Virus record (IMG/VR): IMGVR_UViG_3300045988_183796
DNA length: 64,000 nucleotides
Direction: 5' to 3' (one strand)
DNA from: a virus
Part shown: positions 12,412 through 53,589 of the stretch, piece after piece
Layout of the letters: the number at the start of each line of letters is the position of its first letter
Position numbering within the stretch: the first letter of the stretch is position 1
Translations under genes and position numbers: made by a program
The notes under the pieces: model-generated
Databases searched by the model: none
Seen by the model: only the letters and a program-made list of their open reading frames with translations
What the model was told of the DNA's origin: nothing

Positions 12412-13605
12412 ATGAGCACTTGCGTTTGTGTTCTCAGCAACAGTGGTGAACGCTTAATGCCTACCTTCCGTCTTGGCAAGGTACGCCGACTCTTGAAAGA
12501 CGGAAAAGCAAAAATCGTTAAGCACCATCCATTTACTATCCAGTTACTGTATGACAGTAAAACAAACACGCAGCCCATCGAAATCTGCGAGGATGTGGGC
12601 TACAACTACATCGGCATCAGTGTAAAAAGTCAATCTCACGAGTATGTATCTGCGCAGTATGATACATTACAGGATGAGAAAGCCTGCCACGACAGTTGTC
12701 GTAAGTTGCGCCGAACCCGCAGAAATAGACTGCGCTACCGTAAACCGCGCTTCGATAACCGCAAGCGCGGCGAAGGTTGGCTTGCTCCTTCTTTGAAGCA
12801 TAAGAAAGAACTCAATGTCAACGTTGTCAAGATGTATTGTGCAGTAATGCCCATTACTCATGCAACGGTTGAGGTTGGTTCTTTTGATACGATGCTTGTA
12901 AAAGCAATTCAGGAGGGAAAAGCCATTCCTGAGGGAGCAGACTACCAGAAAGGTCCCCGCTACAACTTGGCAACTTTGCGTGAGGCAGTGTTCTACCGTG
13001 ATAATTACACCTGCCAAGTTTGTGGACGCAAAATCGCGGATGGTGCCATTTTACATATGCACCACATGTTCTACTGGAAAGGAAGACACGGCTACCAGCT
13101 TGATGAGTTGGTTACAGCGTGTGAAAAATGCCACACGCCAGCAAATCATCAAAAAGGCGGCAAGCTCTTCGGTTTTGGCGAAGATAAAGAATTTGCCAAT
13201 CTTTCAGGTGCAGCGTTTATGAACGCTGTTTGCTGGCAGATAGTAGATGCACTGCACGCCACATACGGTAAGGAATTTGTGACCATCACTTATGGTGCGA
13301 TGACAAAGGAAAAGCGAATCATTCTTGGCATAGAGAAAACCCACAACAACGATGCGTATGCAATGGGAGATTATCATCCGGTACATCGTTGCGTGTTTAG
13401 GCATTACCAAAAACGACGCAGAAACAATCGTGTGCTGGAAAAATTCTACGATGCCACTTATATCGACACCCGCACCGGTAACAAAGCAAAAGGTAAAGAA
13501 CTATTTAACGGCAGAATTAGCCGTAATCACAAAAAGAATTCTGAAGACCTGCACAAGTACCGCAGCAAAAAGGTATCGAAGGGCCGTCGCTCTATAAGAA
13601 GGTAG
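12412..13605 (+). CDS. iscB: IscB (IS200/605 OMEGA RNA-guided HNH/RuvC nuclease)
   Basis: N-terminal PLMP-type motif (SGERLMPTFRLGKVRRLLKDGKAKIVKHHPFTIQL). RuvC-I EDVGYNYIGISV. Arg-rich bridge helix RKLRRTRRNRLRYRKPRFDNR. RuvC-II ATVEVGSFD. HNH YTCQVCGRK...HMHH...ACEKCH. RuvC-III THNNDAYAM. No TnpA nearby. Confidence 0.8.
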   Translation: MSTCVCVLSNSGERLMPTFRLGKVRRLLKDGKAKIVKHHPFTIQLLYDSKTNTQPIEICEDVGYNYIGISVKSQSHEYVSAQYDTLQDEKACHDSCRKLRRTRRNRLRYRKPRFDNRKRGEGWLAPSLKHKKELNVNVVKMYCAVMPITHATVEVGSFDTMLVKAIQEGKAIPEGADYQKGPRYNLATLREAVFYRDNYTCQVCGRKIADGAILHMHHMFYWKGRHGYQLDELVTACEKCHTPANHQKGGKLFGFGEDKEFANLSGAAFMNAVCWQIVDALHATYGKEFVTITYGAMTKEKRIILGIEKTHNNDAYAMGDYHPVHRCVFRHYQKRRRNNRVLEKFYDATYIDTRTGNKAKGKELFNGRISRNHKKNSEDLHKYRSKKVSKGRRSIRR

Positions 13606-30879: not shown

Positions 30880-31198
30880 AGTCAACAACCCCGCCTAAAC
30901 CGGTTCGCCGGTTATAGACGGGGCTTGCGGGGCAACCTGTAAGCCCAGTTGATTAGCCTAAGCCCATTGCTCCGGCAGTGGGGAAAACTACGTTGTGTAC
31001 TAATAATATAGGCACCTTATCCATGCTCCACAAGTGGTGAGCTCTGCAGGCGTTTCGTTAAACATCTCCGAGGGGAGGAGAAGTGCGAGCGTCATGTCGA
31101 AAGGCTAAAACAGTGCATAACATTGGCGAAGTGGACCACAGGACGCAAGTCCTGACTTATAGTTTTATTACTATTTTACGAATGGAGAAACAAAAATT
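30880..31198 (+). ncRNA. Omega-RNA/HEARO-like scaffold copy 2 (no iscB), abutting the flotillin start codon
   Basis: Shares the 5' ~75-nt and 3' ~95-nt blocks with copy 1. The middle is divergent. Shows compensatory base changes (caggac-gcaa-gtcctg versus cagggc-gcaa-gccctg). Confidence 0.5.
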
Positions 31199-32842
31199 AT
31201 GGTATATGTGATTGGAATTGTAGCAGCCCTGATTATTCTCTTTGGATTTCTCTGCTACAAGAAAGCTCCGCCCACGGAGGCTATCGTTGTAACTGGCTTT
31301 GGCCTGTCTAAGCCTAAAGTGGTTTGCGGAAAGGGTACATTTGTTCTGCCCGTTCTTCAACGGGCTGACCGACTGAATATGCGCCTTTTGAAAATCGATG
31401 TCAAGACTCCTGAAACAGGTGTTAAGACGAAGAACGGCGTAAGTCTCTGGATTGACTCTGTTGTCACGATTCAAGTCTACAGCGAAAACTCTACCGTTCT
31501 GGATGAAGAAGTGAAGGCATCCGGTCTGAAAGACGCCAAGGCGTACATCATGTCCCGCCAGCAGGCAGCCATCTCGAACTTTCTCGGCATGAACGAGCAG
31601 GGCATCAATGAGAAAGTTAATGACGTTCTGCAGGGCAATTTGCGTGAGATTGTCTCTGACATGACCGTTGACCAAATTCTGACGAACCGCAAGCAGATGG
31701 CTGTGAGCGTTATCGAGAATGCTCGCCCCGACCTTGCTAAGATGGGACTTGAGGTCGTGACTTTTAATGTCCAGGACATCAGGGATGCAGTGGATGTTCA
31801 AGGCCACAATCACGGCGTTATCGAAGCTATCGGCATCGAACAGGAAGAGCTCGTAAAGAAACAGGCTGAAATTGCCCGTGCTCAGGCTGCCCGTGATGTA
31901 GCCTGCGCGAAGGCCGATGCTGAGATGGCTGCAAATGCCAAAGAAGTTGAAGCGCAGACTGCGATTGCAAAACGCAACAATGAATTGCAGCTCGCCAAGG
32001 CAAAGCTGAAAGCTGAAGCTGATAAAGCTGCGGCTGACGCAGATGCTGCCGGTCAGATTCAGATGAATCTCCGCGCCAAAGAAATCAAAGAAGCGGAAGC
32101 GGATGCTGAAATTGCCAAGCAGAAGAAAATGGTAGACCTTGCCGCACAGGAAGCCGAGGTCCAACAACGCAAACTGGATGCGGAAGTCCGCAAACAGGCA
32201 GATGCTGACCTGTACCGCCGCCAGAAAGAGGCAGAAGCCAAGAAATATGAGGCGGAACGTGCAGCTGAGGCACAGAAGTTCTCCAAGCAGCAGGAAGCAG
32301 AAGGCATCGAGCTTGTCGGTAAGGCAGAAGCTGAAGCGATTCGTCAGAAAGGCTTGGCTGAAGCGGAAGCTATGAAACAGAAAGCAGAGGCATATAAGCA
32401 GTATAACGATGCGGCTGTGGCTGAAATGCTCATCAAGGTTCTTCCGGACATTGCCAAGAGCGTGGCTCAGCCTTTGTCCAGCATTGATAAGGTTTCTATC
32501 ATTGGCGGTGATGCCTCCGGCGTATCCGGCGTTTCCGGGAACGTTCCTATCCTGATGGCTCAAACCATGCAGACGGTGAAAGAAGCGACCGGCATTGACA
32601 TGGGCGAAATTGTCCGTGCCAACAGCATCCAGGCAAAGACAGACCGCAACATCAACATTATGACTCAATGTGAACAGCCTGAGAATAACAAAGAGAAAGG
32701 AGGTGCCAAGGCAATGGAACGCGTAGAAGGCGGCTATCTGATTCATGAGAAGAGTCTCAACGGTGAGGAAGTCACTCATTTTCGACCGGATGTGACCGAA
32801 GAAGAGAAGGCTATCATGAAAGACAAAAAAGCCAAAGATTAA
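31199..32842 (+). CDS. Flotillin-like SPFH/Band-7 protein
   Basis: N-terminal TM helix, then an SPFH domain (VVTGFGLSKPKVVCGKGTFVLPVLQRADRLNMR...) and a long EA/K-rich coiled-coil. The antisense 581-aa ORF was rejected. Confidence 0.8.
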   Translation: MVYVIGIVAALIILFGFLCYKKAPPTEAIVVTGFGLSKPKVVCGKGTFVLPVLQRADRLNMRLLKIDVKTPETGVKTKNGVSLWIDSVVTIQVYSENSTVLDEEVKASGLKDAKAYIMSRQQAAISNFLGMNEQGINEKVNDVLQGNLREIVSDMTVDQILTNRKQMAVSVIENARPDLAKMGLEVVTFNVQDIRDAVDVQGHNHGVIEAIGIEQEELVKKQAEIARAQAARDVACAKADAEMAANAKEVEAQTAIAKRNNELQLAKAKLKAEADKAAADADAAGQIQMNLRAKEIKEAEADAEIAKQKKMVDLAAQEAEVQQRKLDAEVRKQADADLYRRQKEAEAKKYEAERAAEAQKFSKQQEAEGIELVGKAEAEAIRQKGLAEAEAMKQKAEAYKQYNDAAVAEMLIKVLPDIAKSVAQPLSSIDKVSIIGGDASGVSGVSGNVPILMAQTMQTVKEATGIDMGEIVRANSIQAKTDRNINIMTQCEQPENNKEKGGAKAMERVEGGYLIHEKSLNGEEVTHFRPDVTEEEKAIMKDKKAKD

Positions 32843-33851: not shown

Positions 33852-35546
33852 GTGACGAAGAAAAATATTTTCCCTGTAGTTGCAACCATCGCCGTGGTGG
33901 GTGTTGTTCTCGGCGTGTTTTCGACGACTGTGCTGCGCGACTCGAATGTCAGCATCAGCACGATGACTTCCGAGCAGGCGTATGCGGATTTAAGCGGAAA
34001 GATGAAACGTATCGGGGTGCAGGAAGTATCCGTCAATCCGCAACAGCTTGATGTATCGGAGTTTCTGGACGCAAAAGATGAGTTGCCGGATATCGACTCC
34101 TCCTACCCGTTTGTGGTGGAGGGAAACGGTGATGTCAACATTGAAATTTTCTCTTCCGGCGAGAAAGCAGCAGAATCCGGCTCCGATTCTTTCCTGACAA
34201 GCATGGCAAAGAAGTTCAACGCCCAGCACAACAAGACTTCCGGAGACAAGACTATGAGTGTCTCCCTGCGCTCCATTCCGTCCGGTACGGCGGCTGAGTA
34301 CATCTCGACGGGAAAGTATCAGCCCGAGTGCTATACCCCTTCAAATACGCTCTTTGGCGAGCTGGTGAAGAACGAGGGCGTAGAATTGACCGTTGAGGCT
34401 GACCGTCTGGTCGGCAATGTGGCGGGTATTCTCGTATCAAAGAAGACAGGGGATATGCTTCGCTCTGAATACGGTGAAGCGTCTGTTTCTTCCGTTCTGA
34501 ACGCAACCATCGATGGCAAACTCATGATGGGGTATTCCAACCCATATACCAGCGCAACTGGTCTTAACTTCCTGCTTGCTGCATTGGCAAGCAGCGGCAG
34601 CGATACGATTGTCGATACGGCTGCTGTTGAGAATTTCCAGAAATTTCAAGCGAACGTCCCTCTCGTATCCTTCACGACCCAGCAGATGGTCCAGTCGGCA
34701 GACAAGGGCATCGTGGACGGCGTTGTCATGGAGTATCAGTCTTATCAGAATGACCCGACCTTACAGCGCAACTACGAGTTCATCCCGTTCGGTGTGCGGC
34801 ATGATAACCCCCTGTATTCTATTGGAAGCATCTCGGCCGAAAAGAAGGAAGTTATTGCTGCGTTCGTTTCCCTCTGCGCCCAGAATCAGGCAGAAGCGAC
34901 GAAGGACGGGTTCAATGGTCTTGACGACTATGCTTATACAGGCAAGGCATACGACGGCAACACCATCGCACAGGCTCAGAGTGTCTGGAAAGAAGAGAAG
35001 GATTCCGGTATTCCTATTGTGGCAGAGTTCGTTGTCGATACTTCCGGCTCGATGCGCGGCGAACCCCTGAATGCCCTGAAAACCGCGATGATAAACACCA
35101 TCCAGTATATCAATGACGACAACTATATCGGCATCATTGGCTTTGATTCAGATGTCAGGGAATACCTGCCCATTGACCAGTTCTCTCTGACCCAGAAAAC
35201 TCTGTATAAGGGTGCCGTGAACTCCCTCGATGCGAACGGCAGCACCGCAATGTACAACGGTCTTTGCGTTGCTATGGACCGCATCTACCAGAAATCTCAG
35301 GAACTGGGTGGGAATTGCACGCCCATCATCTTTGTGCTCACGGACGGTGACAACAATACCGGATATGGCTTCTCCGATACGAAGAACATCATTGCCGGTA
35401 TGGATATCCCCATTTACACCATCAGCTACAACTACGCAGCGGATAGTCTTTCGGAGCTCGCTTCCATCAACGAAGCGGCAGCTATCGTTGGTAACAGCGA
35501 GGATATCACCTACAAGCTCCGCAACCTGTTTAACGCAGAGATGTAA
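33852..35546 (+). CDS. von Willebrand factor A domain protein with an N-terminal TM anchor
   Basis: C-terminal vWA/MIDAS motif VVDTSGSMRGEP ... TDGDNNTG. N-terminal TM helix. Starts 2 nt after the upstream stop. Confidence 0.7.
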   Translation: MTKKNIFPVVATIAVVGVVLGVFSTTVLRDSNVSISTMTSEQAYADLSGKMKRIGVQEVSVNPQQLDVSEFLDAKDELPDIDSSYPFVVEGNGDVNIEIFSSGEKAAESGSDSFLTSMAKKFNAQHNKTSGDKTMSVSLRSIPSGTAAEYISTGKYQPECYTPSNTLFGELVKNEGVELTVEADRLVGNVAGILVSKKTGDMLRSEYGEASVSSVLNATIDGKLMMGYSNPYTSATGLNFLLAALASSGSDTIVDTAAVENFQKFQANVPLVSFTTQQMVQSADKGIVDGVVMEYQSYQNDPTLQRNYEFIPFGVRHDNPLYSIGSISAEKKEVIAAFVSLCAQNQAEATKDGFNGLDDYAYTGKAYDGNTIAQAQSVWKEEKDSGIPIVAEFVVDTSGSMRGEPLNALKTAMINTIQYINDDNYIGIIGFDSDVREYLPIDQFSLTQKTLYKGAVNSLDANGSTAMYNGLCVAMDRIYQKSQELGGNCTPIIFVLTDGDNNTGYGFSDTKNIIAGMDIPIYTISYNYAADSLSELASINEAAAIVGNSEDITYKLRNLFNAEM

Positions 35547-35665
35547 CTCAAAAGCGCGGTTTTGTCCGCGCAGCTGCTCCAAAAGACAGCCTCCACGCGG
35601 CGAGCAGCGGGCAACGGGAGACAGTCCCGGCAAATTGTCTTTGAGACGGAAGGAAGAAGTGCCCT

Positions 35666-37537: not shown

Positions 37538-39571
37538 ATGGTAAGAAGAAAAGCAAACGACTTGGAAAATCAGATGTCGCTGATGGACATGATGGCATCG
37601 AAAAGCCCCGAATATACCGAAGAAGGCCCGGAAGAACTCTTGGACCCCGGCGAGGACATGGAGGACAGTGAAGGGCAGACGGATAAGCCCTTCAAACTCG
37701 TGGCGAACAAGACCACGAAGGCAAAGGCGAGCATCTCCACGCAGGCGTTGAGTGTTGTGAAGGCGGTATATGCTGATACGGTAGAAACGAATTGGGAAGA
37801 GTTGTTTGACGGGTTCGACAGACTCTATGCTATCACTTTTTCGTCCGGTATCGAGTTCGTGAATAAGGTCATCAACAAGTTCTCGTATGCGGAAGTCGTG
37901 TTCGGATGCGAGAAAATCATCGCCAACGACATTGCTGCCATCATGTCGGTGCAAATCGACAGCGTGCAGCGGCTCGCTAAGTCTAAGTCGGCAGGGAACC
38001 TTGCGAACCGCCTCGATGACGGGTCCTTGCAGCTGTATGTATCGCGAGACACGAAATCGCACGAGAAAATCTTTATCTTGGAGAGCGCTGACCATAAGCG
38101 TGTCCGAGTCATCACCGGCAGTGCGAATATGTCGGCATCGGCGTTTTGCGGCATTCAGCGAGAGAATATCGTCTGCTTCGATGACGAGGCGGCATTTTCG
38201 CATTACAAGGTTCTGTTCGAGACCTTCAAGGAGACCTGCTCCGACAATGTCTCCTATAAGGCAGTCGTGAACACCATGAACCAGGAAGATTATCTGAAAG
38301 AGAACATCAAAGAAGTGCCCGTCTTTCAGTCTATTGAAAAGCAGAAGCTTGTCTTTCTGGAACAGGCACAGCCTGAGGATGAGGTCGAATACGAGATAGC
38401 TGCCGATGTCAAGAAAATGCAGGAACTCGTCAAGCCAATCATGCCTAAGATGCCGGTACAGGCGAATCGTATTGTAGTGGCAGCGGAACCGATGCGCGTT
38501 TTCGGGAAACGATATACCGAGGTGCGGCGTGTGGCAGCTGAGGCAGTTAAGCAGCTCCCAAAATTACATATCGACTATGATGCCGGGACCATGACCTTCA
38601 ACGACGAAAATATCGACCTCAATCCGAATCTCAGCGAGGTGGCAAAGAACATCAAGAGCATCCAGAAGTTCTTCTCAGGCATGGACTACTTTTACGGCGA
38701 TGTCGAACAGGCCAAGAAGGACTACTTCAAGTACATGACCTGGTATCTGGCTACTCCGTTCATGGCGTATCTGCGGTATTTCGCATCGAGGAACAACTAC
38801 GATACGAAGCTGTTCCCGATGTACGGCGTTATATACGGCGACTCAAACGGCGGCAAGACGACCTTTATAAAATTTCTTGTCAAACTCATGTGCGGTGAGA
38901 CCGTTAAGATGAACACGACGGAGGATTTCACAGCCACAAGAATCGACGGCCTCAAACGAGTTTGTGAGGGACTGCCGCTGAACATCGACGACCTCGCCAA
39001 GACCCAGTTTCAGAACCATTCAGAACGGGTAATCAAGAACGATGAATGGGGTATCTCGGACAGGCTCGTGAACTATCCTGCTGTATCTATCACATCGAAT
39101 AAAATTACCTCGCTGACAAAAGACCTCTCGAAACGTGCTATCATCTGTCGAATTGGTGCTAAAATCGACAACGAGCGCGGTGCCAAGAACTCAAAGCGTG
39201 TGAATGAGAGTATGTCGGAGCTGACAACCGCGTTCTATGGCGAATATGTCCGCCGAATGCTTGTTTGCATCGATGAGATGACGACGGAAATGCGTGAAAA
39301 TGCGAATGGCAAGGAATACTTCCCGGATATCTTCCACGCTTCGTCTAGTGTCATTGCAGATATCTTCGAGGCATGCGGAATCGATTTGCCGGACTATGTG
39401 CGTATCCTGTACTATAACGACTATATGGGTGATGAGAGCATTGGTCGTGCTGCAATTGAGAAAATCGAACTGGCATGGCATGGCAGGCTGACCCGAGCAA
39501 GTTCCGGGTTGATAAGAAGCAGAACAGGCTCATTTACTCCTATCCGCCGGATGGACCGTGGTACGAACTGA
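37538..39571 (+). CDS. Fusion protein: N-terminal PLD-like (HxK...GSxN) domain plus C-terminal SF3/D5-type P-loop NTPase
   Basis: HEKIFILESADHKRVRVITGSANMS resembles the PLD HKD motif. Walker A YGDSNGGKTTF, with a downstream SITSN motif-C-like element. RBS GGAAGGATAGG. Confidence 0.65.
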   Translation: MVRRKANDLENQMSLMDMMASKSPEYTEEGPEELLDPGEDMEDSEGQTDKPFKLVANKTTKAKASISTQALSVVKAVYADTVETNWEELFDGFDRLYAITFSSGIEFVNKVINKFSYAEVVFGCEKIIANDIAAIMSVQIDSVQRLAKSKSAGNLANRLDDGSLQLYVSRDTKSHEKIFILESADHKRVRVITGSANMSASAFCGIQRENIVCFDDEAAFSHYKVLFETFKETCSDNVSYKAVVNTMNQEDYLKENIKEVPVFQSIEKQKLVFLEQAQPEDEVEYEIAADVKKMQELVKPIMPKMPVQANRIVVAAEPMRVFGKRYTEVRRVAAEAVKQLPKLHIDYDAGTMTFNDENIDLNPNLSEVAKNIKSIQKFFSGMDYFYGDVEQAKKDYFKYMTWYLATPFMAYLRYFASRNNYDTKLFPMYGVIYGDSNGGKTTFIKFLVKLMCGETVKMNTTEDFTATRIDGLKRVCEGLPLNIDDLAKTQFQNHSERVIKNDEWGISDRLVNYPAVSITSNKITSLTKDLSKRAIICRIGAKIDNERGAKNSKRVNESMSELTTAFYGEYVRRMLVCIDEMTTEMRENANGKEYFPDIFHASSSVIADIFEACGIDLPDYVRILYYNDYMGDESIGRAAIEKIELAWHGRLTRASSGLIRSRTGSFTPIRRMDRGTN

Positions 39572-44473: not shown

Positions 44474-46669
44474 ATGATTACAACAAAGAAGATTGACCCA
44501 CGGCCATATCAGCAGAAAGCTGCTGCGGCGATTCATAGAGAGTGGGATGCCGGGAATAAGAAAACGCTGGTTGTGATGCCGACCGGAACCGGCAAAACTA
44601 TTGTGTTTGCAAGCATCGTGAACGACCAGGTGGAAAAGGGCGAACACGTTTTGATTCTTGCGCACCGGGAAGAGCTTTTACAGCAGGCAAGCGACAAGCT
44701 CAAGATGGTGACGGGGCTAGAGACCGCATTGGAGAAAGCTCAGAACTCGGCACTTGATTCCGATAAAATGGTCGTTGTCGCCAGTGTTCAGACTCTCTCT
44801 AAGCAGAATCGGTTAATGAAGTATCCGCGTGATTATTTCGGGGCTATCATCATTGATGAAGCGCATCACACGGCAGCCAAAACTTACAAGGGAATTCTCG
44901 AGCATTTCATTGATGCCAAAGTGTTGGGCGTGACTGCAACACCCGACCGAAGCGACATGAAATCCCTATCTGATATCTTTGATAGTCTTGCATTTGAATA
45001 TAAGCTCCCGGATGCAATTCGGGAAGGATATCTCTGCAAAATTAACACGAAGACAATTCCGGTCGAGGTAGACATCAGCAAGGTTCATATCAATGCCGGT
45101 GATTTCAGTGCTCAGGACCTCGGCAATGTTCTTGACCTGTATCTGGACACGATTGCGGATGCCATTGTGCGAGAATGCCTGAACCGAAAGACTGTCATCT
45201 TTACGCCTCTGGTACGAATCAGCAAAAGACTGTGCAATATCCTCAATAAGCGAAACTTCAAGACCGCAGAAGTCAATGGCGCGTCTGCGGACCGGGAGGA
45301 CGTTCTGAAAGGGTTTGACAATGGCGAGTACAAGGCGCTGACGAACGCGATGCTCCTGACGGAAGGCTGGGATTGCCCGACCGTTGACTGTATCATCTGC
45401 TTGCGTCCTACCAAGAGCCGTAGCCTGTATGCGCAGATTGTGGGACGCGGAACACGCCTATGTGAAGGGAAAAAGAATCTTCTCGTGCTGGATTTCCTGT
45501 GGCTGACAAAGAAACATAGTCTTTGCCATCCTGCTGATATTTTCTGTGAAGACCCGGAAGTGGCACAAAAGACCACCGATATGCTGGCGGATGCGGCACT
45601 CACCGGTTCGAATAGCCAGGAAAATTTCGGGAGTCCCGAATTGGGGCTGATTGAGGCAATCGAGGAAGCACAGACTGAGCTGGACGAGGAAAAGCGGAAA
45701 GCACTGTGTGAACTCGAAAAGCAGGATACGATTCAGCGCAAGCTCAAGGCACAGCGTCAAAAGCCGAGAGGATTGGTTGACCCGCTGCAGTACATTTTCA
45801 GCATCGAAGCGCCGGAACTCAACGATTATCAGCCGATGTTTGAGAGTGAGAGGCAGGAGCCTTCCGATGACATCATCGATAGTATTTCGTGCTACGGCGT
45901 AAAAGGGGATGCCATCAAATCTCAGGGCCTTGCCGCTGCAATTCTCAAACGACTCATTGCTCGCAGAGCCAGCGGAATGGCTACCCCGAAACAAATTCGG
46001 TGTCTTGAAAGTTTTGGGTTCGTCCATGTTGGGCGCTGGACATTGCGGTATGCAAGCGGCTTTTTGGACATCATCAGTTCTCATGACTGGAAACTTCCGA
46101 ATGGGTTCGACGCATCCACGCTGGACCCGGAAAAGAATACGGCAGAAGACCTCGCCAAGCTGTATCCAGACTACAAGGAAGATGAGACGAAGAAAGCACC
46201 GCGTGGGGATGCTTTCATCTGCTGCTACTACGATGCAAGCTACAATTTGGCTCGCAAGAAGGTCTGCAACAGTGAAAAAGAAATGTTGAATCTGTATTAT
46301 TCACTGTTCAATACTTGCGAAGCAAAGTACTTCTATTATACGAAGGAAGCTGATGCCTGGATGGCAGAAAAGCAGAATCTAATTGCCAGAAAGACTGGAA
46401 CACCGATTCCTGCCGCACAGCCGACTCAGGCAACACCCGCAGTACCTCCTCCCTTTGTCCCGACAGCTCCCGCTAAGAGCCACGAATATTATTGCTGCCT
46501 TGCCCGATGGGATGGGTCCTACATTGGCTATGAAACTTACAAGAGTGAGCAGGCAGCTCAGAATGCCCGAAAGCAGATTGCCCGGCGCGGTGAGACGGCA
46601 GTGTATGCCACAGTAGAGGAAGCCGAAGCGTGGGTCGAACAACAGAAGGCGGCAAGAACCAGGAGGTAA
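44474..46669 (+). CDS. SF2 DEAD/DEAH-box helicase (type III restriction-res-like helicase core) with a C-terminal extension
   Basis: Walker A VVMPTGTGKT. DEAH box IIIDEAHH. Helicase C motifs LTEGWDCP, QIVGRGTR. Confidence 0.8.
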   Translation: MITTKKIDPRPYQQKAAAAIHREWDAGNKKTLVVMPTGTGKTIVFASIVNDQVEKGEHVLILAHREELLQQASDKLKMVTGLETALEKAQNSALDSDKMVVVASVQTLSKQNRLMKYPRDYFGAIIIDEAHHTAAKTYKGILEHFIDAKVLGVTATPDRSDMKSLSDIFDSLAFEYKLPDAIREGYLCKINTKTIPVEVDISKVHINAGDFSAQDLGNVLDLYLDTIADAIVRECLNRKTVIFTPLVRISKRLCNILNKRNFKTAEVNGASADREDVLKGFDNGEYKALTNAMLLTEGWDCPTVDCIICLRPTKSRSLYAQIVGRGTRLCEGKKNLLVLDFLWLTKKHSLCHPADIFCEDPEVAQKTTDMLADAALTGSNSQENFGSPELGLIEAIEEAQTELDEEKRKALCELEKQDTIQRKLKAQRQKPRGLVDPLQYIFSIEAPELNDYQPMFESERQEPSDDIIDSISCYGVKGDAIKSQGLAAAILKRLIARRASGMATPKQIRCLESFGFVHVGRWTLRYASGFLDIISSHDWKLPNGFDASTLDPEKNTAEDLAKLYPDYKEDETKKAPRGDAFICCYYDASYNLARKKVCNSEKEMLNLYYSLFNTCEAKYFYYTKEADAWMAEKQNLIARKTGTPIPAAQPTQATPAVPPPFVPTAPAKSHEYYCCLARWDGSYIGYETYKSEQAAQNARKQIARRGETAVYATVEEAEAWVEQQKAARTRR

Positions 46670-46673
46670 CAAG

Positions 46674-47216
46674 ATGCGTACAAACAAGACGGCAAGCCAT
46701 ATTTACTATGAGCTTGACCACGATGTGCAGGAATATGCGAAACGGCTTTTAGCCAAAAAAATTCTGCACGCGGCACAGCAGAATAATGCCGCTCCGTTAT
46801 CTGATAAAACGGCAAAGAAGACTGCTGAGACGGCAGTATTTCTGACCGAACGCCTCGCGCTTTTGTATGAGCTGAATTCTGGATTCCGAGGCATCCGATT
46901 CAGCACTTTCGGAGAACAACCTGCTGTTTACACTACCATGGTCCAGCACAATGCTCCGCTGTACGATGAGCTGATGCTTGGACGGGCCTATAACCTTGCC
47001 AACTACCTTACTGCTGATAATGAGGATATCAAAGAATCTGCTTTGATGAAGCACAAGGTTTTGGCAGCAATTTATAGTGCCGCTGCATACATGAAAGGGC
47101 AGACTCCGGAGCAGGGAAAAATCTCGATTCAGAACCAGCTGTTTGTGTCTACGGCTGTTGAGCTGTTTGATGGTCTTTTGAGTGCAGCGGAAGAGAAAAA
47201 AGAACGGCAGCGATAA
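46674..47216 (+). CDS. Hypothetical protein
   Basis: Starts 5 nt after the helicase stop. Confidence 0.5.
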   Translation: MRTNKTASHIYYELDHDVQEYAKRLLAKKILHAAQQNNAAPLSDKTAKKTAETAVFLTERLALLYELNSGFRGIRFSTFGEQPAVYTTMVQHNAPLYDELMLGRAYNLANYLTADNEDIKESALMKHKVLAAIYSAAAYMKGQTPEQGKISIQNQLFVSTAVELFDGLLSAAEEKKERQR

Positions 47217-47251
47217 AAGTGTCGCCTGAGTTAGAAATTAGGAGAATTTGC

Positions 47252-47704
47252 ATGATTCGAGTTAAGAAAGAGAACCACCGTAGTTGGTTCATGAGCAACT
47301 ATTATCCTTGCGAATTTGTGATGAATGGGATTCGCTACAAGAACGCTGAAGCAGCGTTTCAGAGTCACAAGGTCCCACTGGAAGAGCGCAGACAGTTTGC
47401 GGACATGCCACCGGCTTCTGCCAAGCGCTTTGGCCGCAATGTAGCTATCCCCGCAAACTGGGGTGAGGCTCGGGACGACGTGATGCGCCGCGTGGTGATG
47501 GCCAAGTTCGAGCAGAATGAGGACCTCAAACAGCGCCTCCTCGAAACGGGTACGCAGCCTATTGAGGAAGACACGACCAGCTGGCATGACAATTACTGGG
47601 GCAACTGCCACTGCCCGAAATGCCAGAACATCCCAGGTCAAAACCGGCTTGGGATTATTCTGATGGAAACGAGGGACAAGCTAAAAAAACAAACGAGTAA
47701 ATAA
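47252..47704 (+). CDS. NADAR (YbiA/DUF1768) family ADP-ribosyl N-glycosidase
   Basis: SNYYPCEF, YKNAEAAFQSHK, WHDNYWGNC and GQNRLGIILMETR match NADAR signatures. Confidence 0.75.
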   Translation: MIRVKKENHRSWFMSNYYPCEFVMNGIRYKNAEAAFQSHKVPLEERRQFADMPPASAKRFGRNVAIPANWGEARDDVMRRVVMAKFEQNEDLKQRLLETGTQPIEEDTTSWHDNYWGNCHCPKCQNIPGQNRLGIILMETRDKLKKQTSK

Positions 47705-48265: not shown

Positions 48266-50152
48266 TCACTGAACAACTTCGCCAAGGTCATTTGCGTATT
48301 TCGGGTCACACATCATGAAATAGTTGACGGGGCCGTACTCCAGACCGAGCTCCTGCGCGTATGCCTTGATGACTTCCAGAACGTCCTCTTTCTTGAGATT
48401 ATACTTGGAATGCAGACGGGCAAACTCTTTGTCAGAGACAGAAACGCAAGAGCAATTTTCTGCATCGGTTTCTTTGCTGCCCAGCATCCCGTCAAAGATG
48501 TCCTGCCCTGCACAGAGAATCGTCTCATTGTTCATCGCATAGGCGATAACGGAAGCCTTACAGTCAAAGTCGCTGTTTTCCACAAGGAAATCCTCAGGGC
48601 GGCCGTGACGTTCAACAACGTTTTCATAGATGTCCCGGAGTTCGATAGGAGCAGAAGGAGCGGTCAGAGCTGCTTTATGAAGGCGCATGAATTCCACAAA
48701 CTTTTCATTCGAGAGGGTATCGGTATAAAAGCCGATGCCGGAAACGCGAACCTTCACTTCGCTGGCAAAGTAATCGTCAATTTTGGAGACGATTTTCTGC
48801 TGAACCCGCTTGTACGCTTCCTGAACATTGGAAGCCGTGTAAAATACCGGGAACTTCATGATGTCGATTCCCTCCGGCAGACTCGCGTCATAGGCCGCAT
48901 CAATGCCGCCTCGCAGCGCCGGAACCGCGTCATGAAGCTCTTTCACAGAAGAAATGTATCCGGTAATGTACAGCTCATCGTTTTTGCTGTAATGCCCGAT
49001 AAGTCCCACATAGAGGGTCTGCATCAGCATCCGCTTGAAGCTGAACCAACATAGACGAATGGGTAGAATGACATTAGCAGCCGTACCTTCCGCACGATAG
49101 GTGCCGGGGGCAGAGACCTTTTCCAGCAGAATCTGGTCGTTCTTGTCACCGTATTTTTCCTTGAAAAGAGCTTGAAGAATTTCAGTGGACGAAAGAGGAG
49201 TGGACATTGGAATCGTTTCATTCAGAAAAGAGAGGAATGCATCCACATTGTCTTTCTGCCATGCGTCATTAGACATGCTTGCACGCTGCATAGAGAGCTT
49301 GTCTTTCCTATCATCGGGCAGGGGCTCATACCCACAGGCGATACGAAGTTCGTTCTCCGTGACAGCATCCGTTGCACTTGCAATTTTTTTGATGGTGTTC
49401 TCGGTCGGCTGAGCTTTTGCGTTGCCATTCACGAGGCTGCTGATATACCCACGAGTCAGCCCCGCTTGAAACGCAAACTTACCCTGTGTGCGGGTTCCGA
49501 TGGCTTTTTTGACCAGCGATGCCAGCCTTTGAAAGTCGGGCTCTTTGGGAAAGGTGGCCTCCGCATCCTTATTGCTGTTCTTTTCAAGTACCGACTTGTC
49601 CCAACCGGTGACAAGAGAATACCCAATATCCTTCAAGGATTGATAGGCAACCCCGTTCTGGTCAAGAGCCGGGGAGTATGTACCGCTGTTATCTTCCAGC
49701 TGCTCTACTGCCTCACGCACCATCCTTGCTTCGTTCATCAGGATGACGTCCGGGGCTTCAAGCCGGGCAAGACTCTTGTACCGATTATTGAGGCGCTCGA
49801 CTCGTGCGGCCAATGCAGTGATGTTGGCAACTTGGTCTTCCGTTGCATGGGCAGAGATATCTGCACCAAGTTCAAAATGGTTTAGTGCAGGAATATCCAC
49901 GCCTTTGCTCTTGGCGAATTCCACAATGGCTTCCGCGCCATAGAAACGCTTCTCATGGGCTGCGACAACTTTCGTTATCGTGTCGGCCGAGTTGTCCAGC
50001 TCAAGCACTTCACCTTTTCCGGCATCCTCGACATAACACCTGGTGTTGGTGAGAAAGCCTTTCAAAAAATCAGCATCCACATCCAGCTTCTTAGCGATGC
50101 CGGGCAGCTGCTTATAGAAAATCACGCGCGTGGCGAGGTTAACAGAAATCAT
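48266..50152 (-). CDS. Large hypothetical protein with an internal XRE-like HTH
   Basis: GLTRGYISSLVNG resembles a Cro/C1 HTH. 628 aa. Confidence 0.5.
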   Translation of the reverse strand: MISVNLATRVIFYKQLPGIAKKLDVDADFLKGFLTNTRCYVEDAGKGEVLELDNSADTITKVVAAHEKRFYGAEAIVEFAKSKGVDIPALNHFELGADISAHATEDQVANITALAARVERLNNRYKSLARLEAPDVILMNEARMVREAVEQLEDNSGTYSPALDQNGVAYQSLKDIGYSLVTGWDKSVLEKNSNKDAEATFPKEPDFQRLASLVKKAIGTRTQGKFAFQAGLTRGYISSLVNGNAKAQPTENTIKKIASATDAVTENELRIACGYEPLPDDRKDKLSMQRASMSNDAWQKDNVDAFLSFLNETIPMSTPLSSTEILQALFKEKYGDKNDQILLEKVSAPGTYRAEGTAANVILPIRLCWFSFKRMLMQTLYVGLIGHYSKNDELYITGYISSVKELHDAVPALRGGIDAAYDASLPEGIDIMKFPVFYTASNVQEAYKRVQQKIVSKIDDYFASEVKVRVSGIGFYTDTLSNEKFVEFMRLHKAALTAPSAPIELRDIYENVVERHGRPEDFLVENSDFDCKASVIAYAMNNETILCAGQDIFDGMLGSKETDAENCSCVSVSDKEFARLHSKYNLKKEDVLEVIKAYAQELGLEYGPVNYFMMCDPKYANDLGEVVQ

Positions 50153-50389
50153 GGTGTACTCCTTTCAAATATGTCATTAGCTGTACAATGCTGTCATCTT
50201 CTGTAATTATAATAGCACATCCCGCACCAAAAAGCAAGCATGAATTTACAAAAAATGACAAGAAAATACACAAGATGACATATTTGGGCAAAGCAGTTGA
50301 TTTCCGAGTCTTTGCTACCCCGTGATGGAACATGCCCTGTGCGTCTTGTCTATGCCACAGTTTTGCCACGATTTTGCCATGATTTTGCC

Positions 50390-50441: not shown

Positions 50442-50523
50442 AGCCGCAGAGATTTCGATTTCTGCGGCTCATTTCTTTTGTGGTCCCCATGCGGATGAAA
50501 ATGTCTGCGTGGGGATTTTTTAT
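50442..50523 (+). terminator. Two tandem leader hairpins with T-runs between the promoter and the methyltransferase gene
   Basis: agccgcagagatttcgatttctgcggct followed by catttctttt, then tccccatgcggatgaaaatgtctgcgtgggga followed by tttttt. Confidence 0.5.
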
Positions 50524-50537
50524 TTGGAGATATAGAC

Positions 50538-51632
50538 ATGGCAAAGAATGAGAATCTGCACAAGGCAAAGGATGCCAAGAACGACGAGTTCTATACGCTG
50601 TTGAGCAGTATATCCGAAGAACTCAGACACTACAAGCAGCATTTCGCTGCAAAAATTGTATTCTGCAACTGCGATGACCCGACATGGTCTGCTTTCTGGC
50701 GGTATTTCCACCTGAACTTTGCAGAACTTGGCTTAAAGAAGCTGATTTCCACGCACTATGACCGTACAGAACCCACCTACAAGATGGAGTATGAGGGCGG
50801 AGACGACAATGATGTGGAGGTCGGTGTGAAGACCCCGCTGGAAGGCAATGGTGATTTCCGCAGTCAAGAATGCCTTAATTTGCTGGATGAGTGCGATATC
50901 GTGGTAACCAACCCGCCCTTCAGCCTTTTTAGAGAATTCGTCGGGACGTTGATGGAACACGATAAGAAGTTCATTATTTGGGGCAACAACAATGCCATTA
51001 CATACAAAGAGTTCTTTCCACTTTTGAAAGAAAACAAGGTGTGGCTTGGTTATACAGCGAATAAGACGTGTACATTTAGAGTTGCCGAAGGCTATCGCTT
51101 CGACGAAAAACTTACTGCACAATTCAATGACGGGCACAAGTATGGGAAAGTGCCCGCCATTTCTATTTTTACCAACCTCGACATCCAGAAGCGCCACGAA
51201 AAGCTGATTCTTTGGCAGAGATACTATGACGATAACGGGAATCCGTTGCCGGATGCGGAGGAGAGATACCCCCACTACGATAATTACGATGCCATCAATG
51301 TAGACAGGGTTGCTGATATTCCGGTGGATTATCGAGACGTAATGGGTGTGCCGATTACGTTCTTGGATAAGTATAATCCGAAAGAATTTGAAATTTTAGG
51401 CTACACGGGCGGTTTGGGGTGGAATAACCAAAACAATATAAAAACCACCAAAGAGTATTTGGAATGCAAACAGCACAACCCAGACGGGAGTATTACAAGT
51501 GGGGGCAAGGTAAATACTGGCGCGGCATTGTGCTTTAGTGAAATTCCTGCACAAAGATACTATTCGGCATCAAATTGCGACGGATATCTACTCAGAACAT
51601 ACGGACGAATTCTTATTTGCAAGACGAAATGA
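50538..51632 (+). CDS. N6-adenine DNA methyltransferase (orphan; NPPF motif IV)
   Basis: VVTNPPFSLF catalytic motif. N-terminal DEFYT element, as in EcoRI-methylase-like phage/plasmid methyltransferases. Confidence 0.75.
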   Translation: MAKNENLHKAKDAKNDEFYTLLSSISEELRHYKQHFAAKIVFCNCDDPTWSAFWRYFHLNFAELGLKKLISTHYDRTEPTYKMEYEGGDDNDVEVGVKTPLEGNGDFRSQECLNLLDECDIVVTNPPFSLFREFVGTLMEHDKKFIIWGNNNAITYKEFFPLLKENKVWLGYTANKTCTFRVAEGYRFDEKLTAQFNDGHKYGKVPAISIFTNLDIQKRHEKLILWQRYYDDNGNPLPDAEERYPHYDNYDAINVDRVADIPVDYRDVMGVPITFLDKYNPKEFEILGYTGGLGWNNQNNIKTTKEYLECKQHNPDGSITSGGKVNTGAALCFSEIPAQRYYSASNCDGYLLRTYGRILICKTK

Positions 51633-51646
51633 ATGGTGGAATTGGA

Positions 51647-52456
51647 ATGGATATAAAATGGGAAATCGCCTATTATTTAATTGAAGCGAAAAAAGCTGTC
51701 GATTCTTTATGGTATATATCAAACCATGTCGGCGAATTATATGATGTCAGGCAATTATGCAACGATAGACGAAGTCAGTATTACATTAACACCTGTGCCG
51801 TCTTGGATAAAACTGTGTGTAATGGTAAAGGAAAGAAAAAGGAATTAACGCAAAGCGACAATGTTATTGCACACATCTATTACGAAAGAGATAAGCACTA
51901 TGCTCACAAAGATAGTGATTATAGACAAAACTATCCGTGGACAAATTTGGAGCAAGAAGCGTTTGCATTACAAGAGGAATTGCGCCACATTTCAAAAAAA
52001 TGTAAGGATTATCTTCCACAAGTGCTTACACTCGACTTTGTATGTTATGACAGCGTCCAATATCGATATATCAATAAAATTGGCAAAAGTGATGAAGAAA
52101 AAATAAAGAATGAAAAGTATCCTTTTTACAATAAGCCGTTTATAGTAAATGGAAAGACAATTAAAAAGAAACCTATATACGATATTGAAACCATAAAAAG
52201 CATCCCTACTGATAAGCATAATGAATATTGCGTTATTATAGAAAGTGGCTTGACATTTGAAGAAGATTTGCAAAATAGGCAAGATGCCTTAATTAAATTA
52301 AACGTCCTATGTGGTGGAAGTCTTTGGTATGCAAGAAACGAAACCATGTGGAATGAATGTCTCAGGTTACGAGAATTGGGAATATTTGATGCTTTTGGGA
52401 AAATAAATCGTGAAAGAATTAAAGAGGAGATAAAGAAAGGAAATAAAATCCTATGA
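51647..52456 (+). CDS. Hypothetical protein encoded on an AT-rich insert
   Basis: GC drops visibly (about 32-35%) between about 51650 and 52450. Start is 51629 or 51647. Confidence 0.45.
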   Translation: MDIKWEIAYYLIEAKKAVDSLWYISNHVGELYDVRQLCNDRRSQYYINTCAVLDKTVCNGKGKKKELTQSDNVIAHIYYERDKHYAHKDSDYRQNYPWTNLEQEAFALQEELRHISKKCKDYLPQVLTLDFVCYDSVQYRYINKIGKSDEEKIKNEKYPFYNKPFIVNGKTIKKKPIYDIETIKSIPTDKHNEYCVIIESGLTFEEDLQNRQDALIKLNVLCGGSLWYARNETMWNECLRLRELGIFDAFGKINRERIKEEIKKGNKIL

Positions 52457-53589
52457 AAATTACAGAAACGAAAATCAAGGTATTCGACCTTGTCGAGAAT
52501 TACAAGGACAACGGTGATGGCGGTGTCTTTGGCTACAATGACCGTCTTACGATTCGCCCGTCCTTCCAGCGTGAATTTATATATGGGGAGAAGCAGCGTA
52601 CCGCTGTTATTGATTCCGTAATGAACGGATTCCCTTTGAACGTTATGTACTGGTCCAAGACAGGAGATGACACCTACGAGGTTCTTGATGGACAACAACG
52701 TACTATCTCTATTGCTCAGTACATCAACAAGGATTTTCCTGTCAAAGTCAACGGCAATGATAAGTTCTTCCAGAACCTGACCAACGAAGAAAAGCAGGCA
52801 ATTCTGGACTACGAGCTGACGGTTTATGTCTGCGAAGGCACCGAGGCTGAGAAGCTTGAATGGTTTAAGCGCATCAATATCGCTGGTGAGGTTTTGACTC
52901 CGCAGGAACTTCTGAACGCTACATACACAGGACCGTGGCTGGCCGATGCAAAGAACTACTTCTCAAAGCGCAACTGCGTGGCTGTTAAGATGGCAGATGG
53001 CTATTTGAAAGGCAACCCGATTCGACAGGAACTGCTGGAAAAGGCACTGATTTGGATTGCGGACCGGGATGGTCTGGAATCCGGGCAGATGTACATGGCG
53101 ATTCACCAGCATGACGAGGACGCCAATGACCTCTGGCTTTACTTCCAGTCGGTAATCAACTGGGCCAAAATGCTGTTCCCGTCTAAGCGGAAGGGGATTA
53201 CGGATGCACAGGCATGGGGACTGCTCTACAACAAGTACCATTCGAAGCAGTACAACAGCAACGCTCTGGAAGCAGACATCAAGAAGCTCGTGATGGACGA
53301 TGATGTGACGAAGAAAGCAGGCATCGTTCCGTACATCCTGTCTGACCGTACATGGCGTGACGAAAAGCATCTGTCTCTGCGTGCGTTTACTGAGTCTCAG
53401 AAGCTCCGTGCCTATGAGCGGCAGGGACATAAGTGTCCGCTGTGCGTTGCGAACGGTATCAACACCGAGTATGCCTATGAGGATATGGAAGGTGACCACA
53501 TCATTCCTTGGAGCAAGGGTGGGCATACCACGGATGACAATTTGCAGATGCTGTGCAAGAAGTGTAATTCGGCAAAGTCGGATATGTGA
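52453..53589 (+). CDS. DUF262 (ParB/Srx-like, DGQQR) plus C-terminal HNH endonuclease: type IV restriction / defence-like nuclease
   Basis: VLDGQQRT motif. C-terminal HKCPLC...GDHIIPWSKGG...NLQMLCKKCN HNH motif. Confidence 0.75.
   Translation: MKITETKIKVFDLVENYKDNGDGGVFGYNDRLTIRPSFQREFIYGEKQRTAVIDSVMNGFPLNVMYWSKTGDDTYEVLDGQQRTISIAQYINKDFPVKVNGNDKFFQNLTNEEKQAILDYELTVYVCEGTEAEKLEWFKRINIAGEVLTPQELLNATYTGPWLADAKNYFSKRNCVAVKMADGYLKGNPIRQELLEKALIWIADRDGLESGQMYMAIHQHDEDANDLWLYFQSVINWAKMLFPSKRKGITDAQAWGLLYNKYHSKQYNSNALEADIKKLVMDDDVTKKAGIVPYILSDRTWRDEKHLSLRAFTESQKLRAYERQGHKCPLCVANGINTEYAYEDMEGDHIIPWSKGGHTTDDNLQMLCKKCNSAKSDM

Follow-up and report, generated by a model that had tools for sequence, protein, structure and literature searches.

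A predicted restriction-modification operon on a conjugative element carries a probable HEPN-like gene between its methyltransferase and its DUF262-HNH nuclease

The stretch of DNA analyzed here (hereafter the window; 64,000 nucleotides, IMG/VR virus record IMGVR_UViG_3300045988_183796) is a conjugative element that encodes a type IV coupling protein, a VirB4/TraG-like ATPase, and a Y-family polymerase. Between positions 50,538 and 53,589 it bears a defense locus of three genes, which we name M (a methyltransferase), X (an AT-rich middle open reading frame), and R (a DUF262-HNH nuclease). Positions follow the numbering of the 64-kb window, and the work was computational, from sequence, throughout. 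M and R look like a cognate restriction-modification (R-M) pair, and X, a probable HEPN-like effector of an undescribed family, lies between them at a site that recurrently holds accessory genes. The reading frames and leader elements of the locus are collected in Table 1.

Both the M/X and the X/R junctions are ATGA stop/start overlaps, so that the three genes are close-packed and translationally coupled in one operon. X is listed as an open reading frame from position 51575 and has two plausible ATG start codons, of which the upstream one overlaps the stop codon of M. The G+C content (GC) of X is 33.5% (31% at third codon positions, GC3), as against 45% for M (GC3 54%) and 49% for R (GC3 62%). 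Segments the size of X have a mean GC of 47% across the 64 kb with a standard deviation of 3%, which places X at z = -4.5; it is the only stretch below 38% GC and the lowest point of the entire window. Homologs of X are also richer in AT than their flanks in five other genomic contexts, indicating that the low GC travels with the gene.

M matches the Pfam family EcoRI_methylase (PF13651, E = 1.1e-115, residues 6–313) and the PADLOC model MTase_II (E = 5.7e-113), and its complete methyltransferase domain presents the catalytic motif (D/N)PP(Y/F) as TNPPF. R combines a GmrSD_N/DUF262 domain (PF03235, E = 2.1e-20) with a C-terminal domain of the classic zinc-ribbon HNH type (PF01844, E = 8.8e-14; HNH_5 is also matched), in which Pfam did not find DUF1524. 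Over 50 homologs, the residues D79-G-Q-Q-R83, D348, H349, N363, and N372 and both CxxC pairs are invariant. The PADLOC Type II restriction enzyme model REase_II (PDLC03418) matches R over its full length (E = 1.9e-131, residues 1–377 against model positions 1–371 of 372). The structure predicted for R, built from a shallow alignment, is confident in the two terminal domains only. An earlier note, made by reading the letters of this DNA, had described an NPPF-type adenine methyltransferase, a ParB/Srx-like DGQQR domain fused to an HNH nuclease, overlapping stop and start codons between X and R, and a foreign, AT-rich middle reading frame. The domain matches, the ATGA junction, and the recomputed GC, which is not uniform, bear out each of these descriptions, and R is not assigned to a non-defense family.

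That M and R belong together is indicated by their linkage across genomes. At E ≤ 1e-20 the R family, a very large one, takes in at least 7998 of the 8000 clusters scored as candidates. When one genome per species was scanned, relatives of R appeared in at least 398 species, and the best 80 loci were inspected. An EcoRI-family methyltransferase gene lies upstream on the same strand in 76 of them, which is 76 of the 77 informative loci, since three of the four exceptions have less than 250 bp of upstream sequence. The linked loci come from Firmicutes, Bacteroidota, Proteobacteria, candidate phyla radiation (CPR) bacteria, Spirochaetes, Fibrobacter, and Archaea, and this spread over phyla at 50–55% identity fits a horizontally mobile R-M module. 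In the fourth exception (L068, from a CPR bacterium), a RhuM-family gene (189–836, PF13310, E = 1.1e-64) sits directly 5′ of the nuclease homolog, in the place usually taken by the methyltransferase or by slot cargo, and beyond it the contig ends.

The same arrangement recurs outside this survey. An EcoRI_methylase gene precedes the nuclease on the same strand in all five metagenomic contexts (72–89% identity), and in the window itself R lies 824 bp 3′ of M in the same operon. Homologs of R occur in 50 plasmid records, and on plasmids from four phyla an EcoRI-family methyltransferase gene adjoins them; an IncP plasmid of Aeromonas is one more carrier of the pair, and a 7.5-kb Ligilactobacillus plasmid has, besides M and R, just a regulator and rep. 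In many genomes the pair lies on the chromosome. On many of the listed plasmids a “DUF262 domain-containing protein” abuts or overlaps an “adenine-specific methyltransferase EcoRI family protein”, neighbors that RefSeq treats as unrelated, which makes these names an annotation trap. In one further locus (L005, 351–5971), five tandem N6_N4_Mtase genes stand directly 5′ of the pair and resemble a methyltransferase array on a mobile element.

This linkage bears directly on two claims of the earlier note, namely that M is an orphan anti-restriction methyltransferase without a cognate nuclease and that R is of type IV. Both can be combined into one alternative, in which M serves as an orphan, pre-methylating anti-restriction element, R is an independent type IV nuclease, and X is an unrelated recent insertion. 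A nuclease that cuts modified DNA and is obligately tied to a methyltransferase would destroy its own DNA unless it targets some other mark. Obligate linkage is what one expects where a methyltransferase protects the cell from a toxic nuclease, and it fits poorly with a type IV enzyme that depends on modification. The conjugative setting, the real GC discontinuity, the GmrSD-like architecture and best folds of R, and the L005 pair behind its five methyltransferase genes, which is like an anti-restriction array, all favor the alternative; they have to be set against a same-strand association kept by 76 of 77 informative loci from different domains of life, often with overlapping genes, against the full-length Type II match of R, and against a C-terminus that is a PF01844 HNH domain rather than the DUF1524 of GmrSD. 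We therefore conclude from the linkage and the full-length PADLOC match that M is not an orphan and R is not a solitary type IV enzyme, and we regard the alternative as highly improbable. On these sequence comparisons M and R look like a cognate R-M pair, in which R would be sensitive to the methylation laid down by M. As such the pair is not new, because PADLOC models already cover it.

Comparison with the closest relative of the locus (L001), which served as the reference for substitution rates and for the leader, reveals one variable region in M. The two operons are otherwise 83–86% identical, and the ratio of nonsynonymous to synonymous substitution rates (dN/dS) is 0.088 for M, but residues ~173–210 of M (51055–51168) cannot be aligned with their counterpart in L001 (4651–4715). 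This segment is hypervariable across the family, while the nuclease keeps 89% identity to L001. It could be a target-recognition loop, a candidate assignment that raises the question of how the specificity of the nuclease would follow.

In most pairs M and R are directly adjacent; the gaps of ~100–160 nt seen between them by tblastn correspond to the unaligned, variable C-terminus of M, and in annotated examples the two genes share 1 bp. The gap is enlarged in roughly 10% of loci, where its contents vary by locus, and several of the genes found there overlap or abut their neighbors. L001 carries X in this slot, L027 a Trypsin_2 protease (E = 1.6e-15), L072 a Phd/YefM and ParE toxin-antitoxin pair (E = 1.8e-9 and 2.2e-11), and L090 a DUF6261 protein (E = 2.5e-19). 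The slot of L018 holds a 303-aa open reading frame with RNQVTH (weak HEPN_Apea match, E = 0.099) and a small one that ends in a hydrophobic, possibly membrane-spanning stretch. In L002 it contains a 191-aa open reading frame with RNQMFCH, which was considered as a relative of X and dropped: BLASTP found no similarity and Pfam no match, and only the R-x5-H pattern is common to both. By these comparisons, X is an insertion into the operon at a recurrent site, not an insertion between unrelated genes.

The earlier note's proposal of a recent insertion between M and R thus holds with respect to the common form of the operon, whereas its word “recent” finds weak support. X is retained in L001 at 87% amino acid identity and is coupled on both sides, and its dN/dS against L001 of 0.13 (0.09 for M and 0.06 for R) indicates that it is under purifying selection. 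On the other hand, the synonymous divergence (dS) of X from L001 is 0.55, about half that of its flanks (1.03), which could reflect a younger common ancestor, and so lend some support to a later arrival, or an artefact of composition.

In another reading X is integral to this R-M system, as a timing controller of M and R, an adaptor, or a specificity factor. Such a role would account for the ATGA overlaps with both neighbors, for the M-X-R order kept in L001 and in the closest homologs of X, and for an operon without a recognizable C-protein. We consider it very unlikely, given that ~90% of M-R pairs have an empty slot and the rest hold unrelated cargo, that homologs of X occur apart from M and R in BREX and in Macro/ADP-ribosylglycohydrolase (ARH) islands, and that X has no helix-turn-helix (HTH) or other DNA-binding domain match.

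X matched nothing in Pfam, PADLOC, PHROGs, or NCBIfam at E ≤ 0.01, and profile and sequence searches against the sequences of the PDB returned chance matches only. A word-seeded search gathered 63 clusters of the family, and an exhaustive profile search 233 clusters at 50% identity among 1.84 billion representatives. Close relatives are 72–100% identical, the M-X-R copy in L001 being among the family's nearer members, and more distant ones lie in other settings. One homolog (40% identity) is flanked by PglX and PglZ in a type 1 BREX operon. Another (37% identity) overlaps the stop codon of an ADP-ribosylglycohydrolase gene by 4 bp (L011, 4042–5816; also L012 and L013), in islands with Macro, DUF3800, MazG-like, SLFN-like helicase, and AAA_15/21 genes, and in L014 and L015 a homolog lies near a Macro + DUF6508 gene. 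A 429-aa protein of the representative library (P0260) displays an HsdS Methylase_S domain (E = 2.3e-11) followed in frame by residues ~27–159 of the X family and ends at an apparent contig end; it is either a genuine HsdS-X fusion or an X gene directly after hsdS in a type I locus. The X homolog of L011 is followed by a 421-aa open reading frame with a weak match to the ApeA N-terminal domain (E = 0.008). A second, 271-aa open reading frame of that locus was considered as a paralog of X and dropped, being VWA-like instead.

In an alignment of 49 sequences, D88, A92, H93, and D95 of the X block ERDKxxAHKD are invariant and R87 is present in at least 90%. R87-x5-H93 fits the R-x4-6-H signature of HEPN ribonuclease (RNase) active sites, in which the arginine is followed by a polar residue, here D88 (PMC3710099); divergent members have RNxxxAH. 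HEPN_AbiU2 is the Pfam family matched by the largest number of X-family members (4 of 49, best E = 0.0034, all below the cutoff of 26.8 bits); it recurs below threshold in 3 of 10 divergent members, always over the motif, and one member of the family matches PADLOC AbiU at E = 0.035. None of the X-family matches reaches the curated threshold of any described HEPN family. Membership of X in the pEK499_p136-like HEPN family, suggested by similar contexts, was rejected at an hhalign probability of 0.6% in a comparison against a single sequence, hence of low sensitivity. The AlphaFold2 (AF2) model of X is predicted with high confidence (predicted local distance difference test score 92, predicted template modeling score 0.90), and Foldseek found nothing significant for it in the PDB. 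The weak matches of this model to FliS, CheA-P1, and other helical bundles score about level with those to the four-helix up-down bundles of solved HEPN domains, and its C-terminal half (~140–275) has no fold match. From the motif and the weak, convergent HEPN signals, X is a probable HEPN-like effector of an undescribed family, for which we predict RNase activity.

These weak and evenly scored fold matches, together with the C-terminal half that has no fold match, would also suit a helical protein outside the HEPN group with ties to the signaling or removal of ADP-ribose, acting as a sensor, an inhibitor, or an anti-defense factor. The overlap of X homologs with the end of the ARH gene in L011–L013 and their proximity to Macro + DUF6508 in L014–L015 point the same way. 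We judge this possibility quite unlikely: the conserved R[DN]xxxAH block resembles HEPN active sites and is the part to which the AbiU2 model aligns, neither the window nor the BREX loci pair X with a Macro or ARH gene, and the pEK499_p136-like HEPN family is documented in the same mix of contexts, that is, R-M, Macro/ART, and Pgl/BREX (PMC3710099).

Taken together, our best explanation, which we hold to be moderately probable, is that M and R are a cognate pair and that the recurrent cargo slot between them holds X, a HEPN-type second-line effector. M would methylate adenine in its target, and R would cut DNA that lacks the mark of M, shielding the host and the element from incoming DNA; the pair would probably also act as an addiction module that favors retention of the element. 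Accessory genes would repeatedly insert at the M-R junction, which here would hold the horizontally mobile, AT-rich X. Judging from its motif, X would most likely be an RNase of the HEPN type that works independently of metal and has R-x5-H as its active site, co-expressed with the R-M genes on the same transcript by translational coupling. By analogy, it may form a second line of defense through abortive infection, unleashed once the R-M system is bypassed or inhibited. We propose this role because of the likeness to PrrC in EcoprrI and because HEPN/Abi genes are documented in R-M operons, and X may be functionally coupled to M and R.

A different emphasis would make maintenance of the element the main function, with M and R as a post-segregational killing pair and X and the other slot cargo, such as the ParE toxin-antitoxin genes and RhuM, as extra addiction toxins. 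R-M systems are known selfish addiction modules (Kobayashi 2001, cited in PMC4619093), a genuine addiction pair, Phd/ParE, is among the slot cargo, and M and R are found on very small plasmids with little else (L016, the Ligilactobacillus plasmid) as well as on conjugative plasmids and integrative and conjugative elements. Yet many genomes carry the pair on the chromosome, the window holds no obvious cognate antitoxin for X, and the homologs of X in BREX and defense islands point to phage defense. Maintenance is compatible with defense, not exclusive of it, and as the main function it appears distinctly improbable to us.

Several observations weigh against the preferred explanation of a cognate pair with a HEPN-type effector in its slot. 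The nearest solved folds to R are modification- or phosphorothioate (PT)-sensing enzymes, and its invariant DGQQR belongs, in BrxU and SspE, to a nucleotide-binding DUF262 domain. The label “Type II” may accordingly be wrong for R, and its mechanism may instead depend on nucleoside triphosphates (NTPs), because the DGQQR motif is invariant. NCBIfam and PGAP give R no restriction-enzyme name, and no characterized member of its family was found in the literature searched, in cluster names, or in plasmid and phage annotation. In the model of X, the R-x5-H motif lies at the C-terminal end of helix 78–92, a place that may differ from the canonical HEPN position.

A bolder version of the joint explanation, which we consider unlikely, holds that R represents a distinct restriction class, whose GmrSD-like, NTP-gated ParB/Srx domain reads absent N6-methyladenine, and that the slot, dedicated to cargo and translationally coupled, captures guard effectors. 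If it were true, this class would be present in more than 398 species, including CPR bacteria and archaea, would be the mirror image of the type IV GmrSD mechanism, and would lie hidden under the label “Type II” without a characterized member. The toxin-type cargo of the slot (X, the two other R-x-H proteins, ParE, RhuM, and the protease) would then fire upon inhibition of the R-M system, and X would be a new effector family common to R-M, BREX, and ADP-ribose-linked defense islands. M and R are among the most widely spread R-M modules met in this analysis and appear to be uncharacterized and misannotated, and the retention of DGQQR hints at a non-classical mechanism. The locus is a natural example of a defense operon with a variable internal cargo slot, and X is a reasonable candidate for a new abortive-infection effector.

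The leader upstream of M had been read as three GATTTTGCC repeats, a promoter, and two terminators. Exact copies of GATTTTGCC occur at 50370 and 50381 and nowhere else in the 64 kb (9-mer search); the third repeat is an imperfect copy, AGTTTTGCC, at 50359, 11 bp 5′ of the first exact one. The repeat region is ~86% conserved in L001 and, with its 11-bp period, may be a protein-binding site. It lies between M and a divergent gene (48266–50152, minus strand) for a 628-aa protein with an HTH_3 domain. This gene is 95% conserved at the DNA level in L001, and a short stretch of its product (residues 110–175) is similar to a portion of the β′ subunit of RNA polymerase (TIGR02386, E = 5e-8, far under the cutoff); the protein might be a regulator that binds the repeats. 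The promoter implied between repeats and hairpins did not reach the threshold of the promoter scan, and the sole listed plus-strand site nearby (50255–50284) is 5′ of the repeats.

The two terminators were confirmed as terminator-like hairpins with U-tails (50442–50469 and 50482–50517), which together have a fold z of -5.6, with none of 200 shuffles folding as well. A known riboswitch or attenuator was ruled out, as the Rfam search of the leader found no family at threshold and its best match was a sub-threshold trpB-motif at E = 0.24. The hairpins suggest a leader that would attenuate or insulate the operon. In L001 a 2.3-kb insertion (L001 1790–4109) with a 622-aa DUF4379 gene takes the place of the second hairpin directly 5′ of M, making the leader a second variable site of the locus.

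Table 1 Predicted genes and leader features of the M-X-R locus (window numbering).
Feature	Position	Strand	Description
Direct repeats of 11-bp period	50359–50389	+	AGTTTTGCC / GATTTTGCC / GATTTTGCC; sequence reading
Terminator-like hairpin 1	50442–50469	+	12-pair stem, tail CATTTCTTTT; kept in L001
Terminator-like hairpin 2	50482–50527	+	16-pair stem and T-run; ends just before the GGAG ribosome-binding site of M
M	50538–51632	+	364 aa; EcoRI-family N6-adenine DNA methyltransferase; predicted modification subunit
X	51629–52456	+	275 aa (ATG 51629) or 269 aa (ATG 51647); predicted HEPN-like effector
R	52453–53589	+	378 aa; DUF262 (ParB/Srx-fold, DGQQR) and zinc-ribbon HNH; predicted restriction subunit

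Around the locus, the element carries further cargo: a PLD nuclease, a Mor-like regulator, a ResIII helicase, NADAR, and RlaP. The regions 37538–39571 and 44474–47704 hold a 677-aa protein with an NgoFVII-like PLD nuclease domain and, nearby, a ResIII/SNF2-type helicase and a NADAR-domain protein, which may be further defense or anti-defense genes of the element. A megablast search of the 48–56 kb region against phage and plasmid collections gave zero matches. Elsewhere in the window, a HEARO RNA (IscB omega-RNA, RF02033, 91 bits) at 30881–31141 on the plus strand lies directly 5′ of an SPFH/flotillin gene (31199–32842) and not of IscB; the sole IscB-like open reading frame of the window (RRXRR and HNH, 12412–13605) is ~17 kb away and has no above-threshold HEARO adjoining it. 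A ribozyme resembling that of hepatitis delta virus, of the F. prausnitzii type (RF02682, 60 bits), is found at 35573–35642 on the plus strand, just 3′ of a VWA-domain gene (33852–35546).

Among known systems, the EcoRI R-M system is the natural reference for M, which belongs to the same Pfam family over its full length; the two-gene, Type II-like layout is also alike, as is its frequency on plasmids. R.EcoRI, however, is a PD-(D/E)XK enzyme, whereas the partner here is a DUF262-HNH protein, and the order here is M followed by R with overlapping reading frames. With BrxU and SspE of the GmrSD family, R shares the N-terminal DUF262 domain and its DGQQR motif. Those enzymes comprise ~560–580 residues with a DUF1524 nuclease, while R, at 378 residues, is ~200 residues shorter and ends in a PF01844 HNH domain. 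R matches neither of them, nor any other solved DUF262 enzyme, significantly in sequence. BrxU acts on modified DNA and SspE on PT-marked DNA, and neither is paired with an adenine methyltransferase; R, in contrast, is nearly always linked to one of the EcoRI family.

For X, the closest parallel in genomic logic is PrrC of the type Ic system EcoprrI (hsdM-hsdS-prrC-hsdR), where a HEPN-type gene, as predicted for X, is placed between the modification and restriction genes and co-expressed with them; the X homolog P0260 likewise follows a type I HsdS domain. The resemblance is limited to that logic, for PrrC and RloC fuse an N-terminal ABC-ATPase to a C-terminal HEPN domain, whereas X has no ABC-ATPase domain or P-loop in the libraries searched and does not detectably resemble PrrC in sequence. 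The system that harbors X has two genes and is Type II-like rather than type I. HEPN families embedded in R-M operons include AbiU2, Abi2/AbiD/AbiF, MAE_28990, ApeA, and pEK499_p136-like proteins (Anantharaman et al. 2013, PMC3710099), and HEPN genes beside ParB and HNH proteins or DNA methylases have been catalogued under the logic of a “second line of defence” (PMC3710099). X shares the R-M context and the R-x4-6-H motif of the Abi-type HEPN proteins, and it shares with the pEK499_p136-like family the full mix of genomic contexts given above. It differs from them in its ~270-residue length with an extra C-terminal domain and in belonging to a family outside Pfam, PADLOC, PHROGs, and NCBIfam. 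HEPN/Abi genes in R-M operons have been known since 2013, and the present case extends that theme.

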